Assembly (NCBI RefSeq): GCF_056746865.1
Contig: NZ_CM163382.1
Reading direction: 5' to 3' (one strand)
DNA length: 64,000 nt
Below, piece by piece: positions 7,391-62,261 of this stretch (its first letter is position 1; each line of letters begins with the position of its first letter). The position numbers and the translations under genes are program-made. The notes below the pieces were generated by a model, which saw nothing but the letters and a program-made list of their open reading frames with translations, did not search any database and was not told where the DNA came from.

Positions 7391-8472
7391 TGCAACCTTT
7401 TGGCGTACTTGACCGCTATATCGGTAAAACTATTTTCACCACCATCATGATGACACTGTTCATGCTGGTGTCGCTGTCGGGCATTATCAAGTTTGTCGAT
7501 CAGCTGAAAAAAGCCGGGCAGGGGAGTTACGACGCGTTAGGCGCAGGAATGTATACCTTGCTGAGCGTGCCGAAAGATGTGCAGATCTTCTTCCCGATGG
7601 CGGCTCTGCTTGGGGCGTTGCTTGGTCTTGGGATGCTGGCGCAGCGCAGCGAACTGGTGGTGATGCAGGCTTCTGGTTTTACCCGTATGCAGGTGGCGCT
7701 GTCGGTGATGAAAACCGCCATTCCGCTGGTCTTGCTGACGATGGCGATTGGCGAATGGGTCGCGCCGCAGGGCGAGCAGATGGCGCGTAACTACCGTGCG
7801 CAGGCGATGTACGGCGGCTCGTTGCTCTCTACCCAGCAAGGCTTATGGGCGAAAGATGGCAACAACTTCGTCTACATTGAGCGGGTTAAAGGTGACGAAG
7901 AGTTAGGTGGCATCAGCATTTATGCCTTTAACGAGAATCGTCGTCTGCAATCCGTACGCTATGCCGCTACTGCGAAGTTTGACCCGGAACATAAAGTCTG
8001 GCGTCTGTCGCAGGTTGATGAATCTGATCTGACCAATCCGAAACAGATTACCGGTTCGCAGACGGTGAGCGGCACCTGGAAAACCAACCTCACGCCGGAC
8101 AAACTGGGCGTGGTGGCGCTGGACCCGGATGCACTCTCTATCAGCGGTTTGCACAACTATGTGAAGTATCTGAAGTCGAGCGGTCAGGATGCCGGACGTT
8201 ATCAGCTCAACATGTGGAGCAAAATCTTCCAGCCGCTATCTGTGGCGGTGATGATGCTGATGGCGCTGTCGTTCATCTTTGGCCCACTGCGTAGCGTACC
8301 GATGGGCGTGCGTGTGGTCACCGGTATCAGTTTCGGTTTTGTCTTCTACGTACTGGACCAGATCTTCGGCCCGCTGACGTTGGTTTATGGCATCCCGCCG
8401 ATCATCGGCGCACTGTTGCCAAGCGCCAGCTTCTTCTTAATCAGCCTGTGGCTGTTAATGAGAAAATCGTAA
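7390..8472 (+). CDS. lptG: LPS export ABC transporter permease LptG
   Basis: 360-aa membrane protein MQPFGVLDRYIGK...; ATG overlaps lptF stop (TGATG). Confidence 0.9.
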   Translation: MQPFGVLDRYIGKTIFTTIMMTLFMLVSLSGIIKFVDQLKKAGQGSYDALGAGMYTLLSVPKDVQIFFPMAALLGALLGLGMLAQRSELVVMQASGFTRMQVALSVMKTAIPLVLLTMAIGEWVAPQGEQMARNYRAQAMYGGSLLSTQQGLWAKDGNNFVYIERVKGDEELGGISIYAFNENRRLQSVRYAATAKFDPEHKVWRLSQVDESDLTNPKQITGSQTVSGTWKTNLTPDKLGVVALDPDALSISGLHNYVKYLKSSGQDAGRYQLNMWSKIFQPLSVAVMMLMALSFIFGPLRSVPMGVRVVTGISFGFVFYVLDQIFGPLTLVYGIPPIIGALLPSASFFLISLWLLMRKS

Positions 8473-8487
8473 CCGAATGAACGAATA

Positions 8488-8514
8488 AAGGGAGCGAAAG
8501 CTCCCTTTATTATT
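8488..8514 (+). terminator. Intrinsic terminator after lptG
   Basis: Hairpin AAAGGGAGC-GAA-GCTCCCTTT followed by T-rich tract. Confidence 0.6.
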
Positions 8515-8583
8515 GTTAGCAAAGTGTGCTTCGTTCATTCCTGAAAAATAATTAAAATTCAATATATTGCAGTGGGGTGGGCA

Positions 8584-8612
8584 TGATAAGACGCGCCAGC
8601 GTCGCATCAGGC
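8584..8612. repeat. Single REP element
   Basis: TGATAAGACGCGCCAGCGTCGCATCAGGC matches REP palindrome family seen at 4.3 kb. Confidence 0.6.
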
Positions 8613-8632
8613 AAAGACAAATCTCGCCTGAC

Positions 8633-10135
8633 TTACCTTCTTCTCCCCCCCAGCAAACTCCCCAACATCCCGCGTACAATCTGATTCGTCACTTGGCGAG
8701 CGGCGCTTTTGGCCATTGTTTGCACCACACCATCTTTCTTCCCGCCGCGTGGTCCGGTAGTGCCGAACAAAATATCCTTCAATCCACCAAGAATGCCGTC
8801 ATCCACCGCTACCTCTTTCCCTTTCGCGGGAGGATTATTTTGCTGCTCGGTACTGGCCTGAAAGCCTTTTTGCAACATCTCATAGGCGGATTCCCGGTCC
8901 ACCTCATCCTCATATTTGCCATACACCGGAGAGTGATTAATCAAGCCATTACGCTCATCTTCCGTCACCGGCCCCATCCGCGAACAAGGCGCGATCACCA
9001 TCGCACGCTCCACCACAGAAGGGCTTCCTTTCGCATCCAGAAAAGAGATCAACGCCTCGCCGGTGCCCAGTTCCTGAATCGCCTTTTCGGTATCAAACGC
9101 CGGATTGGCCCGCATGGTTTGCGCCGCTGCCTTCACTGCTTTCTGATCTTTTGGCGTAAAAGCCCGCAAAGCATGTTGAACGCGATTACCGAGCTGCCCG
9201 AGCACATTATCCGGAATATCAGACGGGTTTTGCGAAACGAACCAGACGCCCACGCCTTTTGAGCGAATAAGCCTTATCACCTGCTCAATCTTATCCAGCA
9301 GTACCTGCGGGGCATCGTTAAACAGCAGATGTGCCTCGTCGAAGAAAAACACCAGTTTTGGTTTCTCCAGATCGCCCGCTTCCGGCAATTGTTCATACAA
9401 CTCTGAAAGCATCCACAGCAGGCTGGCGGCGTACAGTTTCGGCATCTGATAAAGTTTCTCGGCGCTGAGGATATTGATAACGCCTTTACCGTTGGCATCG
9501 GTGCGCATCCAGTCTTTGATATCCAGCATCGGCTCACCAAAGAAGTGTGCTGCGCCTTGCTGTTCCAGCGACAACAGCCCGCGCTGGATGGCACCAACCG
9601 ATGCGCTACTGATATTACCGTACTGATTCTGGAAGGATTTGGCGTTATCGCCGATGTACTGGGTAATTGCCCGCAGATCTTTAAAGTCGAGCAGTAACAG
9701 CCCCTGATCGTCAGCAATGCGGAAGATGATATTCAGCACGCCAGATTGCACATCGTTGAGATTCAACAGTCGTGCCAGCAACAGCGGCCCCAGATCCGAA
9801 ACCGTCGCCCGCACCGGATGGCCTTTCTCGCCAAAGATATCCCACACCACCACCGGATTGGCATGCGGTTGCCAGTCATTGACGCCGATATTTTTAAGCC
9901 TTGCGAGCAGTTTTTCCGACACCGTTCCTGCCTGCGCGACGCCGGTCAGATCGCCTTTCACATCAGCCATAAACACCGGCACGCCGATTTCCGACAATGA
10001 CTCCGCCAGTTTTTGCAGCGTAACGGTTTTACCCGTCCCCGTTGCGCCGGTAATCAGCCCATGACGGTTAGCCATTCCCGGCAGTAAAAACAGTTCTGTG
10101 TCCGGCGTGCGGGCAATTAACAGGGGTTCACTCAT
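8633..10135 (-). CDS. yjgR: DUF853-type P-loop NTPase
   Basis: 500-aa ORF with Walker A GATGTGKT. Confidence 0.85.
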
Positions 10136-15261: not shown

Positions 15262-16281
15262 TCAAAAATCGGCTTTCAACACCACGCGGTAACGCGCCTT
15301 ACCGTCGCGCACATGCTGGATGGCGTCGTTAATTTTCGACATCGGGAACAGTTCGGTGGTCGGCGCAACCTTGCTGCGGGCGGCAAAACGCATCAGCTTA
15401 CGCAGCTCATAAGGCGTGCCGGTAGCAGAACCAGAGACGCTGCGATCGCCCGCAATTAACGTAAAGGCCGGAACAGACAGCGGCGTGAGAACCGCACCGA
15501 CCGTATGGAAATTACCGCCATAGGTCAGCGCCTCAAAATAGGGCTGCCAGTCGAGGCTGACGTTGACGGTGTTGATAATGAGATCAAACTGCCCCGCCAG
15601 TGCTTTCAGTGCCTGCGGATCGCGGCTATTCACCACTTTATCGGCACCCATCGCCAGCACTTCCTGCTCTTTCGCCGGATTAGAACTAAAGGCTGTCACC
15701 TCGCATCCCATTGCGTGCAGAAGTTTTATAGCGATATGCCCCAGCCCGCCAATACCAATTACCCCAACGCGGCTGGTAGCAGTGATATGGTGCATCAACA
15801 GTGGTTTAAAGACCGTGATACCGCCGCACAACAGCGGCCCGGCGGACTCGATATCAATATTTTCTGGCAGTGGAATCACCCATTGCCAGTCCGCACGCAA
15901 CTTCTCGGCAAAGCCACCGCGATTCATAATCGTCGGCACCGCACCTTGCTCGCAGTTGATCTGATTACCGCTAATACAGGCGTCGCAGTGACCACAGCTA
16001 CGCGCCGTCCAGCCAATCCCGACACGCTGACCGACCTGCAAACCTTTATCCTGCGCGGCGCTCCCGAGTGCCACCACGCGCCCAATCACCTCATGCCCGG
16101 CAACCAGCGGATATTGTGAAAATCCCCATTCGTTATCGATCATCGACAGATCGGAATGGCAGATCCCGCAGTAATCCACCTGCACTTCAACATCTTGTGG
16201 CCTCAGCTCACCGGGATCGTACTCATAAACTTCCAGTTCGCCGCCCGCTTCTTTTGCGGCATAGCTTTTTATCATCGACAT
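15262..16281 (-). CDS. ahr: NADPH-dependent aldehyde reductase (Zn-ADH family)
   Basis: 339-aa product from MSMIKSYAA; zinc-ADH motifs GHEVIG and CGICHSD; ORF track start 16323 is upstream in-frame. Confidence 0.85.
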
Positions 16282-16420
16282 TTTTTGGTCCTTCTCTGGT
16301 GTTGTTTGGGAAGTGTAGAGCATGGCAGGGCGGGGTGCCTGGAGTGTGACAAAGGTTACACATCGCTGTATGCAATGCTGAAAATTTCAGCACTTAGCGA
16401 GGTGCGAGCAAGCTGGCGCT

Positions 16421-16476: not shown

Positions 16477-16561
16477 GCCGAAGTGGCGAAATCGGTAGAC
16501 GCAGTTGATTCAAAATCAACCGTAGAAATACGTGCCGGTTCGAGTCCGGCCTTCGGCACCA
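16477..16561 (+). tRNA. leuX: tRNA-Leu (anticodon CAA), 85 nt with encoded CCA
   Basis: GCCGAAGTGGCGAAATCGGTAGACGC...CGGTTCGAGTCCGGCCTTCGGCACCA; anticodon loop TTCAAAA; long variable arm typical of tRNA-Leu. Confidence 0.95.
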
Positions 16562-20826: not shown

Positions 20827-22251
20827 AATGCCAGTCAGTTAAGCAACTGACTGGCTCTTTTTCGGGGCTGTGGGGTATTTCCAGGGCCTCTCCTTTACCA
20901 CTCTCGGGAAGGCCCTTTCCCTTCTTGTCGGTAATTTCACAAGTTGTCCCATACTTGCAAGATCGCGCATCAGCTCCGGTATACGTCCCGGTGAAGCGCC
21001 CTGCAATGTCATCAGCATTCTCATCACCATTCCGCATGATTCTGAGAAACTCAGTTGATTCGGCCAGTAACCTTTCAGATGTTCCGCCATTTTAATCATC
21101 TGATATCTCACCAGATTATAAGCCAGTAAGACACCCCACAGCTCTTGCTCCACAAGCTCCGGCTTTTTACTTCTCAGCGTCAGCCTGCTCCGTTGCATCG
21201 TCTGTTTTATCTCCCTGTATCCCAGTTCGATTTCCCAGCGATGACTGTACAGATCCCCCATTTCTCCTCCGGGGAAGCGCATGGCGTCCGTCATCGACGT
21301 CAGCAGATGGCAGACTTTTCCTTTGCGCGTCACGGTCAGCAGGCGGGCAGTCACTTCATTTCCCAGTCCCGGCCACTTTTTTCGTGCCTGCGGGCTGGTT
21401 TTCAGCTTCACCAGATGATCGCCTTTACCCAGTTTTCTGATCTCTTCATATTGCGCTCCCTTTCTGAGAGGTATCATCCAGTGGCGGTGTTCTCCCGCCA
21501 GGCTCCAGGCATTTAACAGTCCCAGTGAGTAATAACCTTTATCCATTAACGTCAGAGTGTTATCGCCGGTTTGTTCTATAAGTTGCTCAGCAAGCTCATT
21601 TTCGCTGTTCTTCATCGTGCCGAAGGCTGCAGCCGTCAGCAGATGGCTGGTCAGTTCCATCTGGCAGACCATTTTGACCTGCGGGTAGAGCGCCGGGTTC
21701 CCGGCATGTGTCTGGCGGGGGAAGGCTGCATCGTTCTCTGGTGTATCCGGTGTGCGCCAGAACACACCATCGATGGCCAGCAGGGTCAGGCCGCACCAGT
21801 GCGGATGCGGCGTGGCGTTATGCCAGAGCTGCGCTGTTTTCGTGAACACGCGGCGGACAGCCTCACTTCCCAGGCGCTGGCGGGCCTGAATAACGGCACT
21901 GGGGGCAACGAAGGGGCGATTGCCCGGCAGCATGATGTCCAGGCGATTCACAATCTGGTGAAGAGGTTCTTTACGCTCAAGCGCCATGCCAACAATACAC
22001 CAGACCATCATTTCGAGGGGAAGACGGCGCTTGCGTAGCGTTACAGTACCTGATTCGGCAAGGCAACGAGAGATGAGTTCGGGGTCGAGGTAATCCCCCA
22101 GAGAAGTCAGTGGGTTACGCAGAGAATCGTAACGGGATACCAGATCAAGAGCCTGTCCAATGTGCATAAAAAAATCCGGAAACAAGTGAGCGTTTCCGGA
22201 TTCTTACACAGCCACTGGATCGGTCAACTGATCCTTAACTGATCGGCATTA
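20827..22251 (-). mobile_element. IS4 insertion sequence (about 1.43 kb)
   Basis: Terminal inverted repeats TAATGCCAGTCAGTTAAG / TAATGCCGATCAGTTAAG; single transposase ORF; 12-bp direct repeats flank it. Confidence 0.9.
20839..22167 (-). CDS. insG: IS4 transposase
   Basis: 442-aa product from [16 protein letters not shown]... (DDE transposase); ORF track start 22185 is 6 codons upstream. Confidence 0.85.
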
Positions 22252-22263: not shown

Positions 22264-22793
22264 GTGTTTGTAACAAACTATCAGCTACAAAAATATGCTC
22301 AATTTGTGACATCAGTAACAAAACGCGTTTTGTTATGTGGATTGCTTGTTTTTTGATCTGGTATAACAGGTATAAAGGTATACAGAAAAGCAAAGAAATA
22401 CTGCAAAGGAAAACAGCTATAACGTAAGCTAAAGTAATAACCTCTCAGTCTTTCCTCATTTGACGAAGGGAGTTTTATTCAACCTGAACGGACTACGAAA
22501 ATGAGCACAATGAATAAGTCAATTTTTGAAGCAGGGTTGAACTGTGCCAGTGGTGGAATATCTGGCGAACATTGTTTTTTGTTGGTGACCCAAAACTGTA
22601 GGTGGGTATCAGTTTTATCTTTCATAGAGTGAAATATGTTAAGAAGAAATGGAGGAAAAGATTGTACTGATTAGGTATTGATAACAATCAATAGTACTGG
22701 CGTATTTGAAGACAATATAATTATTTCTGGATATTGTTGAGGCTCCCTAATATTTACTTTAAGGGCTATATTAGAATAACACAGGAAACAAAT

Positions 22794-57897: not shown

Positions 57898-58770
57898 ATG
57901 AATCCGTCTGATGCCATTGAGGCAATTGAAAAACCGCTCTCCTCCCTGCCTTACTCACTTTCCCGTCACATCCTGGAACATCTGCGCAAACTCACCAGTC
58001 ACGAACCCGTGATTGGCATTATGGGTAAAAGCGGGGCCGGTAAATCCTCACTCTGTAATGCACTGTTTCAGGGGGAGGTCACCCCGGTCAGTGATGTTCA
58101 CGCCGGCACCCGGGAAGTGCGGCGCTTCCGTCTGAGTGGCCACGGTCACAGCATGGTTATCACTGACCTGCCCGGGGTGGGCGAGAGCCGGGACAGGGAT
58201 GCAGAGTATGAAGCCCTGTACCGTGACATTCTGCCCGAACTGGACCTGGTGCTGTGGCTGATTAAAGCCGATGACCGCGCCCTGTCTGTGGATGAGTATT
58301 TCTGGCGACACATCCTGCACCGGGGACATCAGCAGGTGCTGTTTGTGGTGACGCAGGCCGACAAAACGGAGCCCTGCCATGAATGGGATATGGCCGGCAT
58401 TCAGCCTTCTCCCGCACAGGCACAGAACATTCGGGAGAAAACGGAGGCGGTATTCCGTCTGTTCCGGCCCGTACATCCGGTTGTTGCCGTATCGGCCCGC
58501 ACCGGCTGGGAACTGGATACGCTGGTCAGTGCGCTAATGACAGCACTTCCCGACCATGCCGCCAGTCCCCTGATGACCCGCCTGCAGGACGAGCTGCGCA
58601 CGGAATCTGTCCGCGCTCAGGCCCGTGAACAGTTTACCGGTGCGGTGGACCGGATATTTGACACGGCGGAGAGCGTCTGTGTTGCCTCTGTTGCCCGTAC
58701 GGTTCTGCGTGCCGTCCGTGACACGGTGGTCTCTGTTGCCCGCGCTGTATGGAACTGGATTTTCTTCTGA
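57898..58770 (+). CDS. YeeP/YfjP/YkfA-family GTPase (50S ribosome-binding GTPase fold)
   Basis: G1 motif GKSGAGKSS, G3-like DLPG; start at MNPSDAIEAIEK. Confidence 0.8.
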   Translation: MNPSDAIEAIEKPLSSLPYSLSRHILEHLRKLTSHEPVIGIMGKSGAGKSSLCNALFQGEVTPVSDVHAGTREVRRFRLSGHGHSMVITDLPGVGESRDRDAEYEALYRDILPELDLVLWLIKADDRALSVDEYFWRHILHRGHQQVLFVVTQADKTEPCHEWDMAGIQPSPAQAQNIREKTEAVFRLFRPVHPVVAVSARTGWELDTLVSALMTALPDHAASPLMTRLQDELRTESVRAQAREQFTGAVDRIFDTAESVCVASVARTVLRAVRDTVVSVARAVWNWIFF

Positions 58771-58884
58771 ACAGTCTGCCAGGGAAATGCCTGATAACAT
58801 TACGTTAACCAACTGAAAACATGACACAAACCCCTCATACTCCTCCTGTTTCTCTTGCGTGACCGCCTTGTCGTTAATAGAATA

Positions 58885-58928
58885 AAACGATCGATAAAAC
58901 AGGTATCGATCGTTGCTATCGATCGTTT
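58885..58928. promoter_or_regulatory. agn43 phase-variation switch: three GATC (Dam) sites in the expected OxyR-binding region
   Basis: GATC at 58889, 58908 and 58921 within AACGATCGATAAAACAGGTATCGATCGTTGCTATCGATCG. Confidence 0.7.
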
Positions 58929-59083
58929 ATAGTGGTTAATGGTCTGCGAAAAGGCAGCTGAATCTCTTCATCATGCAGAACGGAATTGCACACAACGGAC
59001 TGATACTTCTCTGGCGGATGAGAGAGGGGAAGCATTTATGTCCGGGAAAAACCACTTTATCTGAGCATGCTGTTTTGTACCTG

Positions 59084-59116
59084 CCGGTATCCACATTTGT
59101 GGGTACCGGCTTTTTT
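59084..59116 (+). terminator. Terminator-like hairpin plus T6 in the flu leader
   Basis: CCGGTATCCACA-tt-TGTGGGTACCGG then CTTTTTT, ending 26 nt before the flu ATG. Confidence 0.6.
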
Positions 59117-59141
59117 ATTCACCCTCTGTAAGGAAAAGCTG

Positions 59142-62100
59142 ATGAAACGACATCTGAACACCAGCTACAGGCTGGTATGGAATCACATTACGGGCACCCT
59201 GGTGGTGGCCTCCGAACTGGCCCGCTCACGGGGAAAACGCGCTGGTGTGGCGGTTGCGCTGTCTCTTGCTGCTGTCACATCAGTCCCGGCACTGGCTGCT
59301 GACAAGGTTGTACAGGCGGGAGAAACCGTGAACGACGGAACACTGACAAATCATGACAACCAGATTGTCCTCGGTACGGCCAACGGAATGACCATCAGTA
59401 CCGGTCTGGAGTATGGGCCGGATAACGAGGCCAATACCGGCGGACAATGGATACAAAATGGCGGTATCGCCAACAACACTACTGTCACCGGTGGTGGTCT
59501 TCAGAGAGTGAATGCCGGAGGAAGCGTTTCAGACACGGTTATCAGTGCCGGAGGCGGACAGAGCCTTCAGGGGCAGGCAGTGAACACCACTCTGAACGGC
59601 GGTGAGCAGTGGGTACATGAAGGCGGGATTGCAACGGGTACCGTCATTAATGAGAAGGGCTGGCAGGCCATCAAATCCGGCGCAGTGGCAACCGACACGG
59701 TTGTGAATACCGGCGCGGAAGGGGGACCGGATGCGGAAAATGGTGATACCGGGCAGACCGTCTACGGAGATGCCGTACGCACCACCATCAATAAAAATGG
59801 TCGTCAGATTGTGGCTGCTGAAGGAACGGCAAATACCACTGTGGTTTATGCCGGCGGCGACCAGACTGTACATGGTCACGCACTGGATACCACGCTGAAT
59901 GGGGGGTACCAGTATGTGCACAACGGCGGTACGGCGTCTGGCACTGTTGTAAACAGTGACGGCTGGCAGATTGTCAAAAACGGGGGTGTGGCCGGGAATA
60001 CCACCGTTAATCAGAAGGGCAGACTGCAGGTGGACGCCGGTGGTACAGCCACGAATGTCACCCTGAAGCAGGGCGGCGCACTGGTTACCAGTACGGCTGC
60101 AACCGTTACCGGCATAAACCGCCTGGGAGCATTCTCTGTTGTGGAGGGTAAAGCTGATAATGTCGTACTGGAAAATGGCGGACGCCTGGATGTGCTGACC
60201 GGACACACAGCCACTAATACCCGCGTGGATGATGGCGGAACGCTGGATGTCCGCAACGGTGGCACCGCCACCACCGTATCCATGGGAAATGGCGGTGTAC
60301 TGCTGGCCGATTCCGGTGCCGCTGTCAGTGGTACCCGGAGCGACGGAAAGGCATTCAGTATCGGAGGCGGTCAGGCGGATGCCCTGATGCTGGAAAAAGG
60401 CAGTTCATTCACGCTGAACGCCGGTGATACGGCCACGGATACCACGGTAAATGGCGGACTGTTCACCGCCAGGGGCGGCACACTGGCGGGCACCACCACG
60501 CTGAATAACGGCGCCATACTTACCCTTTCCGGGAAGACGGTGAACAACGATACCCTGACCATCCGTGAAGGCGATGCACTCCTGCAGGGAGGCTCTCTCA
60601 CCGGTAACGGCAGCGTGGAAAAATCAGGAAGTGGCACACTCACTGTCAGCAACACCACACTCACCCAGAAAGCCGTCAACCTGAATGAAGGCACGCTGAC
60701 GCTGAACGACAGTACCGTCACCACGGATGTCATTGCTCAGCGCGGTACAGCCCTGAAGCTGACCGGCAGCACTGTGCTGAACGGTGCCATTGACCCCACG
60801 AATGTCACTCTCGCCTCTGGTGCCACCTGGAATATTCCCGATAACGCCACGGTGCAGTCGGTGGTGGATGACCTCAGCCATGCCGGACAGATTCATTTCA
60901 CCTCCACCCGCACAGGGAAGTTCGTACCGGCAACCCTGAAAGTGAAAAACCTGAACGGACAGAATGGCACCATCAGCCTGCGTGTACGCCCGGATATGGC
61001 ACAGAACAATGCTGACAGACTGGTCATTGACGGTGGCAGGGCAACCGGAAAAACCATCCTGAACCTGGTGAACGCCGGCAACAGTGCGTCGGGGCTGGCG
61101 ACCAGCGGTAAGGGTATTCAGGTGGTGGAAGCCATTAACGGTGCCACCACGGAGGAAGGGGCCTTTATCCAGGGGAATAAGCTGCAGGCCGGTGCCTTTA
61201 ACTACTCCCTCAACCGGGACAGTGATGAGAGCTGGTATCTGCGCAGTGAAAATGCTTATCGTGCTGAAGTCCCCCTGTATACATCCATGCTGACACAGGC
61301 AATGGACTATGACCGGATTCTGGCAGGCTCCCGCAGCCATCAGACCGGTGTAAACGGTGAAAATAACAGCGTCCGTCTCAGCATTCAGGGCGGTCATCTC
61401 GGTCACGATAACAACGGCGGTATTGCCCGTGGAGCCACGCCGGAAAGCAGCGGCAGCTATGGCTTCGTCCGTCTGGAGGGTGACCTGCTCAGAACAGAGG
61501 TTGCCGGTATGTCTCTGACGACAGGGGTGTATGGTGCCGCAGGCCATTCTTCCGTTGATGTTAAGGATGATGACGGTTCCCGCGCCGGCACGGTCCGGGA
61601 TGATGCCGGCAGCCTGGGCGGATACCTGAATCTGACACACACGTCCTCCGGCCTGTGGGCTGACATTGTGGCACAGGGAACCCGCCACAGCATGAAAGCG
61701 TCATCGGACAATAACGACTTCCGCGCCCGGGGCTGGGGCTGGCTGGGCTCACTGGAAACCGGTCTGCCCTTCAGTATCACTGACAACCTGATGCTGGAGC
61801 CACAACTGCAGTATACCTGGCAGGGACTTTCCCTGGATGACGGCCAGGATAACGCCGGTTATGTGAAGTTCGGGCATGGCAGTGCACAACATGTGCGTGC
61901 CGGTTTCCGTCTGGGCAGCCACAACGATATGAGCTTTGGTGAAGGCACCTCATCCCGTGACACCCTGCGCGACAGTGCAAAACACCGTGTGCGTGAACTG
62001 CCGGTGAACTGGTGGGTACAGCCTTCTGTTATCCGCACTTTCAGCTCCCGGGGTGACATGAGCATGGGTACAGCCGCAGCCGGCAGTAACATGACGTTCT

Positions 62101-62261
62101 CACCGTCCCGGAATGGCACGTCACTGGACCTGCAGGCCGGACTGGAAGCCCGTGTCCGGGAAAATATCACCCTGGGCGTTCAGGCCGGTTATGCCCACAG
62201 TGTCAGCGGCAGCAGCGCTGAAGGTTATAACGGTCAGGCCACGCTGAATGTGACTTTCTGA
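59142..62261 (+). CDS. flu: Antigen 43 self-associating autotransporter
   Basis: 1039-aa product from [25 protein letters not shown] (extended autotransporter signal), repetitive Gly/Thr/Asn-rich beta-helix passenger, C-terminal beta-barrel ending in F. Confidence 0.9.

Follow-up and report, generated by a model that had tools for sequence, protein, structure and literature searches.

The control region of agn43 (flu) in a leuX-inserted island of Escherichia coli reads as an intact, common allele with a probable OxyR/Dam switch and leader attenuator

The stretch of DNA analyzed here (64,000 nucleotides, hereafter the window) carries an intact agn43 (flu) gene on its plus strand, preceded on the same strand by a GTPase gene of the island backbone:

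57898-58770, plus strand: YeeP/YfjP-like GTPase gene, island backbone, upstream of agn43
59142-62261, plus strand: agn43 (flu) coding sequence

The 1039-aa agn43 product starts MKRHLN and contains the Pfam domains ESPR, AIDA repeats, AC_1 (autochaperone) and Autotransporter beta-domain; DNA identical to 59142-62261 is annotated as autotransporter adhesin Ag43 (WP_000820498.1). The GTPase gene is a listed open reading frame with the Pfam domain MMR_HSR1, and the identical region of FDAARGOS_497 is annotated as a GTPase family protein. Over the control region between the two genes FDAARGOS_497 is 100% identical to the window across a 421-nt query; colinearity of the two throughout was considered and fails for the first 50 kb.

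Island annotation was taken from CFSAN061770 together with a tRNA scan. The sole tRNA that the scan finds in the window, tRNA-Leu(CAA) at 16477-16561, is leuX; it is the insertion point of an island (16600-64000) that has the agn43 copy at its far end. Downstream of leuX this island carries nan genes, the fec operon and numerous IS copies. Close to its far end it has a CP4-type module with YfjI, the GTPase gene, agn43, a DUF905 gene behind agn43 that is annotated as frameshifted in identical genomes, DUF932, antirestriction, JAB and DUF987 genes, and a YeeU/CbtA remnant; yeeR-irmA is absent behind the window copy of agn43. Megablast finds the control region in 4137/5426 complete E. coli genomes (full length in 3426), always immediately before an Ag43/Cah gene. 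Matches also occur on records filed as plasmids of other genera, at 98% identity in H35 (Salmonella enterica, 12.9 kb) and 89% in H40 (Klebsiella pneumoniae, 229 kb), and most other "plasmid" matches are to megabase-size records that are presumably chromosomes. A phage collection searched with the control region gave no match.

The operator contains three Dam sites, which on reading the sequence lie precisely where a preliminary description of this DNA had placed them, with spacings of 19 and 13 nt as in E. coli K-12:

58889-58892, unstranded: GATC-I (Dam site)
58908-58911, unstranded: GATC-II (Dam site)
58921-58924, unstranded: GATC-III (Dam site)

GATC occurs 188 times in the 64-kb window, and triplets within 40 nt are observed three times versus about 0.8 expected, so that a GATC triplet alone is unremarkable and weak evidence. 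To sample alleles, metagenome contigs were scanned with the sequence of the leader terminator only, with no selection for GATC, which yielded 116 loci with enough flank (94 unique). The 19/13 triplet is kept in 110 of these 116 loci (89 unique sequences), and for this exact spacing, common to K-12 and to the independently sampled copies, chance is excluded. The remaining six loci (five unique sequences) have lost one GATC by point mutation, for example to AATC, GATG or TATC (L019/L034, L028, L054, L082 and L119, all on metagenome contigs), and these natural alleles are candidates for altered or locked phase switching. Two other triplets occur in the window. One (22218, 22230 and 22241) is situated 33-56 nt ahead of an IS4 transposase open reading frame (20839-22185, minus strand; Pfam Nterm_IS4 and DDE_Tnp_1), with a 13/20 match to the OxyR consensus nearby at 22267, and may reflect Dam control of the transposase promoter or the IS end. 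The other (16138, 16149 and 16162) falls within a zinc-dependent alcohol dehydrogenase open reading frame just before leuX (15262-16323, minus strand; Pfam ADH_N and ADH_zinc_N) and is probably due to chance.

The contiguous 37-nt OxyR consensus, said to be that of Toledano 1994 (ATAGnTnnnAnCTATn7ATAGnTnnnAnCTAT), matches the operator at only 13/20 positions, level with a few unrelated sites in the window. In the register that fits K-12 best (14/20 there) the window has 10/20 by hand count, because the K-12 CTAT between GATC-I and GATC-II is AACA here. We therefore replaced the uninformative contiguous consensus with a scan for single half-sites (a form of the consensus given in PMC2909390), followed by a scan for pairs at start-to-start spacings of 18-39 nt. 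Only 14 half-sites in the 64 kb score at least 8/10, and three of them are in the operator, at 58877, 58905 and 58909. The best pair in the whole window scores 16/20 and is found only from 58877, at a spacing of 28 or 32 nt; the register at 58905 is an alternative for the second half-site, also at 8/10. The pair that starts at 58877 and 58909, 32 nt apart, spans the -10 hexamer and all three GATC sites:

58877-58891, unstranded: predicted OxyR half-site 1, ATAGAATAAAACGAT, 8/10, overlapping the -10 hexamer and GATC-I; identical in K-12 and ~100% conserved
58909-58923, unstranded: predicted OxyR half-site 2, ATCGTTGCTATCGAT, 8/10, with each of its two recognition tetramers overlapping one GATC

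Within half-site 2, ATC of GATC-II falls in the first tetramer and GAT of GATC-III in the last. The preliminary description had placed the GATC sites in the region expected to bind OxyR, and the two predicted half-sites agree with this, one covering -10/GATC-I and the other GATC-II/III. Alignment with the characterized K-12 allele, set beforehand as the test that could overturn that assignment, is gapless from -12 to +36 of GATC-I and speaks in its favor.

Conservation follows the same layout. Across the 94 unique alleles, identity to the window is ~100% at 58851-58857, 58876-58896, 58904-58914 and 58917-58925, and falls to ~75% at 58897-58903 and to 22-68% at 58915-58916. Two OxyR half-sites would be expected to leave just such peaks, with a variable spacer and a variable center of half-site 2: the changes occur between the half-sites and at the center of the second, where the consensus specifies no base, and the spacer between GATC-I and GATC-II would be free to differ between allele types. 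From its sequence, the agn43 operator thus reads best as two OxyR half-sites 32 nt apart, a modest addition to textbook knowledge. A spacing of 32 nt, three helical turns, would fit the extended arrangement attributed to reduced OxyR, which is consistent with reports that agn43 switching is independent of OxyR oxidation (PMC2909390, PMC4856963). In agn43 the three GATC sites are described as overlapping the OxyR site, with methylation and OxyR binding mutually exclusive (PMC13337833, PMC4872104, PMC2909390). UPEC strains show strong OxyR repression of agn43 (PMC4807369), in operators that may not be of the window type, and the 121-fold rise of agn43 in an EC958 oxyR mutant (PMC4807369) indicates that OxyR repression is valid beyond K-12.

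A putative promoter overlaps this operator:

58855-58860, plus strand: putative -35 hexamer TTGCGT, 3/6 consensus, 17 nt upstream of -10, its TTG conserved
58878-58883, plus strand: putative -10 hexamer TAGAAT, 5/6 consensus, invariant in nearly all alleles, ending 5 nt before GATC-I
58889, plus strand: putative transcription start, the G of GATC-I, by homology with K-12

The -10 hexamer falls inside OxyR half-site 1. A sigma-70 consensus scan returned no promoter at the operator, which we attribute to the weak -35 (3/6), and the assignment of TTGCGT and TAGAAT stays putative. The K-12 start was reportedly mapped to the G of the first GATC by Wallecha 2002; the Rfam IS102 model begins 2 nt upstream of the corresponding base, at 58887. 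For the agn43-yeeR-irmA transcript of UPEC EC958, 5' RACE gave a 5' end 228 nt before the ATG (PMC4807369); transferred to the window this is 58914, between GATC-II and GATC-III, whereas 58889 is 253 nt upstream of the ATG. This discrepancy could reflect a processed end or an allele difference.

The leader that follows ends in a hairpin and a ribosome-binding site just before agn43, and nearly all of it belongs to a described RNA family:

58887-59123, plus strand: Rfam RF00124 IS102 (IsrC) RNA match, 73.4 bits (gathering score 46), E = 2.7e-12, full model 1-206
58926-59075, plus strand: central part of the leader, variable and here of the window type; megablast does not align it to the K-12 leader
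59083-59116, plus strand: predicted intrinsic terminator (12-bp hairpin, loop AUUU, then U6), from sequence, terminator scan and folding
59130-59134, plus strand: Shine-Dalgarno sequence AAGGA, 7 nt before the ATG

The hairpin consists of the 5' arm GCCGGTATCCAC (59083-59094), the loop ATTT (59095-59098) and the 3' arm GTGGGTACCGGC (59099-59110), with 12 pairs of which eight are G-C and one is a T.G wobble; this G.U pair (59090/59103) is A-U in 13% of alleles. Six T residues follow at 59111-59116, then AUU in the transcript, and the last T of the six lies 26 nt before the A of the agn43 ATG (59142). An 11-12-bp stem with T6 at this distance from the ATG had been described before, and we find it with 12 pairs at 59083-59110. 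Its interpretation as an intrinsic-terminator-like structure also holds up: the hairpin folds at -23.5 kcal/mol versus a shuffle mean of -7.5 (z = -6.8; 0/200 shuffles as stable), is the top-ranked site of the terminator scan and coincides with the 3' end of the RF00124 match. It combines a stable GC-rich hairpin and a U-tract on the transcribed strand, as an intrinsic terminator does; two of the other three terminator-like matches in the scan are merely the palindromic GATC repeats of the operator. The RF00124 match exceeds the gathering score, which makes the interval from GATC-I to the terminator a member of a curated small-RNA family, one that the preliminary description does not name. Window-type alleles other than this one score 72-77 bits in RF00124 and K-12 scores highest, at 252.6 bits. 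Apart from RF00124, the Rfam search of the leader matched no riboswitch or leader family.

The sampled alleles reveal that the middle of this leader is exchangeable. The region 58926-59075 exists in at least two forms: the window form makes up ~75% of sampled alleles, with 191 nt from GATC-I to the terminator search pattern, and the K-12 form ~25%, with 158-160 nt. In K-12 itself the only megablast match in this region is 59078-59195. When the consensus sequences of the two types are compared, identity jumps from 37% just upstream of 59080 to 93% from that position onward, holds at close to 90% as far as ~59260, third codon positions included, and then drops to ~70%. The block 59117-59141, which lies outside the search pattern, is ~100% conserved. 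With the operator and the terminator/Shine-Dalgarno/signal-peptide block conserved and the middle replaced, the leader is a mosaic, and the identity jump at the terminator could mark either the edge of a recombined segment or a constraint that acts at the nucleotide level on the terminator-to-start-codon unit. The mosaic is likewise a modest addition to textbook knowledge. Since the central ~150 nt differs from K-12, results on the K-12 leader may not transfer to the majority allele. An intermediate leader type, 78.5% identical to the window, occurs in E. coli GIMC1409 (L003), with a GATC spacing of 20/13 and an agn43 annotated as frameshifted. Two contigs, L014 (labeled as a Collinsella MAG) and L144 (IMG/VR), keep the operator and part of the leader with agn43 deleted, the junctions falling within the terminator or shortly before it; the 1.5-kb "Collinsella" contig consists of E. 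coli-like sequence and is probably a binning error. E. coli PK-F-10132 (L008) has lost all but the initial 59 nt of the intergenic region and a beta-barrel remnant of agn43.

The best-characterized relative is K-12 agn43/flu, whose Dam-OxyR switch was reportedly studied by Henderson & Owen 1999, Haagmans & van der Woude 2000, Waldron 2002 and Wallecha 2002. The window shares with K-12 the three GATC sites at 19/13, an identical -10/GATC-I block (ATAGAATAAAACGATC), identical cores (ATCGATCGTT and TATCGATCG), the position relative to the Ag43 gene and the upstream GTPase gene. It differs at 10 of 49 operator positions (alignment, our own reading), seven of them in the spacer between GATC-I and GATC-II; the -10/GATC-I and GATC-II/III blocks are unchanged, and the differences fall in that spacer and in two central bases between GATC-II and GATC-III. 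Its -35 is TTGCGT where K-12 has TTGTCC, its leader measures 253 nt against 222 nt, and its locus is in the leuX island rather than in CP4-44. Relative to IsrC/IS102 (RF00124), the full model is covered, the 5' end is at GATC-I and the terminator is nearly identical. However, the window scores only 73 bits where K-12 has 253, its middle 150 nt is another sequence, and insertions of 41 and 63 nt stand where the model has 35 and 35.

GATC sites inside OxyR half-sites are shared with the other promoters under Dam/OxyR control, Salmonella gtr and opvAB and phage Mu mom, and so is a half-site spacing that fits reduced OxyR (PMC2909390, PMC4856963). Salmonella gtr has GATC pairs 13 bp apart inside single OxyR half-sites, like GATC-II/III (PMC2909390). 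In agn43 a single repressor site covers promoter and start, whereas gtr and opvAB contain three or four half-sites, OxyR can occupy alternative positions on them, and it can act as an activator (PMC2909390). The hairpin resembles enterobacterial leader attenuators in its GC-rich stem and U-tract between promoter and Shine-Dalgarno sequence; it differs in that we found no leader peptide with regulatory codons, riboswitch family or conserved antiterminator in the window leader.

Related operators also occur in front of other genes, as seen when species-representative genomes were scanned with the GATC-II/III core. Citrobacter braakii ATCC 51113 (L012, minus strand, ~5190-3977) and C. amalonaticus (L015, 920-1337) have an agn43-type promoter-operator, TTAATAGAATgTAACGATCGATAaCTATTTTATCGATCGTTatTATCGATCG, with three GATC sites at 19/13. 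It follows a homologous GTPase gene and, through a leader of ~105 nt with no terminator, drives signal-peptide proteins of 154 and 157 aa instead of agn43. A PDB search gave nothing significant for the 154-aa protein (best E = 0.3) and no match for the 157-aa protein, and Pfam matched neither; with no match in either database, an identification of these small secreted proteins as IrmA was rejected. The 157-aa protein resembles E. coli genes annotated YfjT/YkfB, which in one E. coli island examined lack the GATC module. C. werkmanii (L009, minus strand, 7250-4705) has a 19/13 triplet with OxyR-like half-sites ATAGTTTTTATCGAT and ATCGTTTTTATCGAT 32 nt apart (our own reading), ~70 nt before a 187-aa predicted membrane protein. 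Next come a 131-aa protein, a weak match to SLATT_4 (20.8 bits, short of the 27 that Pfam requires) and a SMODS nucleotidyltransferase, and the whole may be a phase-variable defense-type cluster. Viral contig L142 has a homolog of the membrane-protein gene, likewise with a similar module of GATC sites (spacing 18/13).

The IMG/VR contig L143 (~8339-8800) has a GATC-II/III-type pair upstream of a homolog of the Mu Com zinc finger. Judged by its sequence, the gene after this com homolog is probably a DNA methyltransferase, and the arrangement resembles the known Dam/OxyR-controlled mom operon of phage Mu (PMC2909390). Edwardsiella piscicida (L010, 2147-2200) has a 13-nt unit, CTATCGATCGTTT, in four to five tandem copies directly after a terminator-like hairpin, which gives a GATC every 13 nt and a chain of OxyR-half-site-like units. 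Found in front of such varied genes, the operator looks like a portable module, which in Citrobacter braakii and C. amalonaticus would belong to the cargo slot of the island.

Sequence anatomy, conservation, half-site statistics, Rfam membership and hairpin stability are direct observations on the window region, which is very probably an intact, common allele of the agn43 (flu) control region, combining an OxyR/Dam on/off switch with a leader attenuator. Its operation can be sketched by analogy with work on K-12 and UPEC, which is the source of what follows on OxyR binding, sensitivity to methylation, the start site, termination and readthrough. A sigma-70 promoter (-35 TTGCGT, -10 TAGAAT) would start transcripts at the G of GATC-I or close to it. 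Bound as a tetramer to the half-sites at 58877-58891 and 58909-58923, in the extended arrangement of its reduced form, OxyR would cover the -10, the start and the three GATC sites, thereby repressing the gene and shielding the GATC sites from Dam (OFF). Where Dam methylates these sites first after replication, OxyR binding would be blocked and the gene would stay ON, and both states would be inherited. In ON cells the transcript would run ~228 nt to the strong intrinsic terminator 26 nt before the ATG; terminated transcripts would be the IsrC/IS102-type small RNA, and the fraction that reads through would carry the Shine-Dalgarno sequence and agn43.

The role of the hairpin can be read in other ways. 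Expression of flu has been described as controlled by antitermination of IsrC (PMC5389530, citing Wallecha 2014). Leaders of four allele types (window, O145, GIMC1409 and K-12) were folded as far as the hairpin loop in search of an antiterminator; no pairing is common to the four, and no conserved RNA antiterminator was found. The window and O145 types have a weak predicted pairing of 58932-58944 with the terminator 5' arm (59083-59094) that K-12 and GIMC1409 lack, and forcing the terminator 3' arm open costs 17-20 kcal/mol in every type folded. The hairpin might then be mainly an ordinary terminator or insulator that stops read-through from the GTPase gene and constitutively dampens agn43, with readthrough a fixed leak instead of controlled antitermination. 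This would agree with the lack of a shared antiterminator pairing, with the energy by which the terminator is favored, and with the terminator scan, which shows no terminator-like site between the GTPase stop (58770) and the agn43 promoter. We nevertheless consider it possible but on balance unlikely. The hairpin sits within a sharply bounded, ~90-93% conserved block that runs through the Shine-Dalgarno sequence and the signal-peptide codons while the leader just upstream is replaced, and the published description of agn43 control is one of antitermination (PMC5389530). Furthermore, the Citrobacter operators that drive other genes lack the hairpin, which suggests that it travels with agn43 and not with the GTPase gene.

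A quite improbable alternative is that the terminated leader is a trans-acting small RNA (IsrC) with a separate function and confined to ON-phase cells, so that the terminator serves the small RNA and not the limitation of agn43. The interval is indeed a curated Rfam small-RNA family; IsrC has been seen as a discrete RNA in K-12, and repressing it altered a production phenotype by a mechanism stated to be unknown (PMC10783499). On the other hand, ~150 nt of the ~228-nt RNA is replaced between allele types, the conserved ends are accounted for by the DNA operator and the terminator, and no conserved unpaired seed region is visible. Doubt could also be directed at the switch itself, which might be degenerate in this copy, locked or biased, given that the left part of the OxyR site differs from K-12 (AACA for CTAT between GATC-I and GATC-II, and 10/20 by hand count versus 14/20 in the K-12 register). 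We regard this as highly improbable: this operator type is the majority one, with its full-length match in 3426/5426 complete E. coli genomes, K-12 has identical or equivalent counterparts of both 8/10 half-sites, UPEC agn43 is strongly OxyR-repressed (PMC4807369), and natural GATC-loss variants are rare (6/116).

The leader also contains an upstream open reading frame (58973-59131, 52 codons, ATG start) that crosses the hairpin and whose stop, TAA, overlaps the agn43 Shine-Dalgarno sequence. The frame crossing the hairpin (...LYLPVSTFVGTGFFIHP) is open for at least 17 codons upstream in 94/94 alleles (median 47) and has an ATG in 76 of them and none in 18; in K-12 this frame continues into agn43. 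Of the 17 sites of the open reading frame that vary among window-type alleles, 10 are at third codon positions, and the changes in it comprise 7 synonymous versus 11 nonsynonymous. On reading the sequence, the ATGs of this frame have no Shine-Dalgarno sequence, and the peptide shows no conservation between allele types. Coupling of terminator readthrough to translation of this unannotated frame is very unlikely; if true, ribosomes translating through the hairpin would keep the terminator from acting and would be passed on to the agn43 start.

The OxyR/Dam switch with its leader attenuator, our preferred reading, is already known biology, and the allele is an ordinary one, the majority form in E. 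coli. To this the present analysis makes small additions: an operator that reads as two half-sites, a leader that is a mosaic, and natural variants that have lost a GATC. That this flu copy would retain its regulatory apparatus, as originally proposed, is borne out as far as sequence anatomy, conservation, RF00124 membership and the intact Ag43 gene can tell. The agn43 copy in the leuX island thus appears to keep everything needed for phase-variable expression, which is relevant to work on aggregation and biofilm phenotypes in strains that carry this allele, because their populations would be mixtures of ON and OFF cells.
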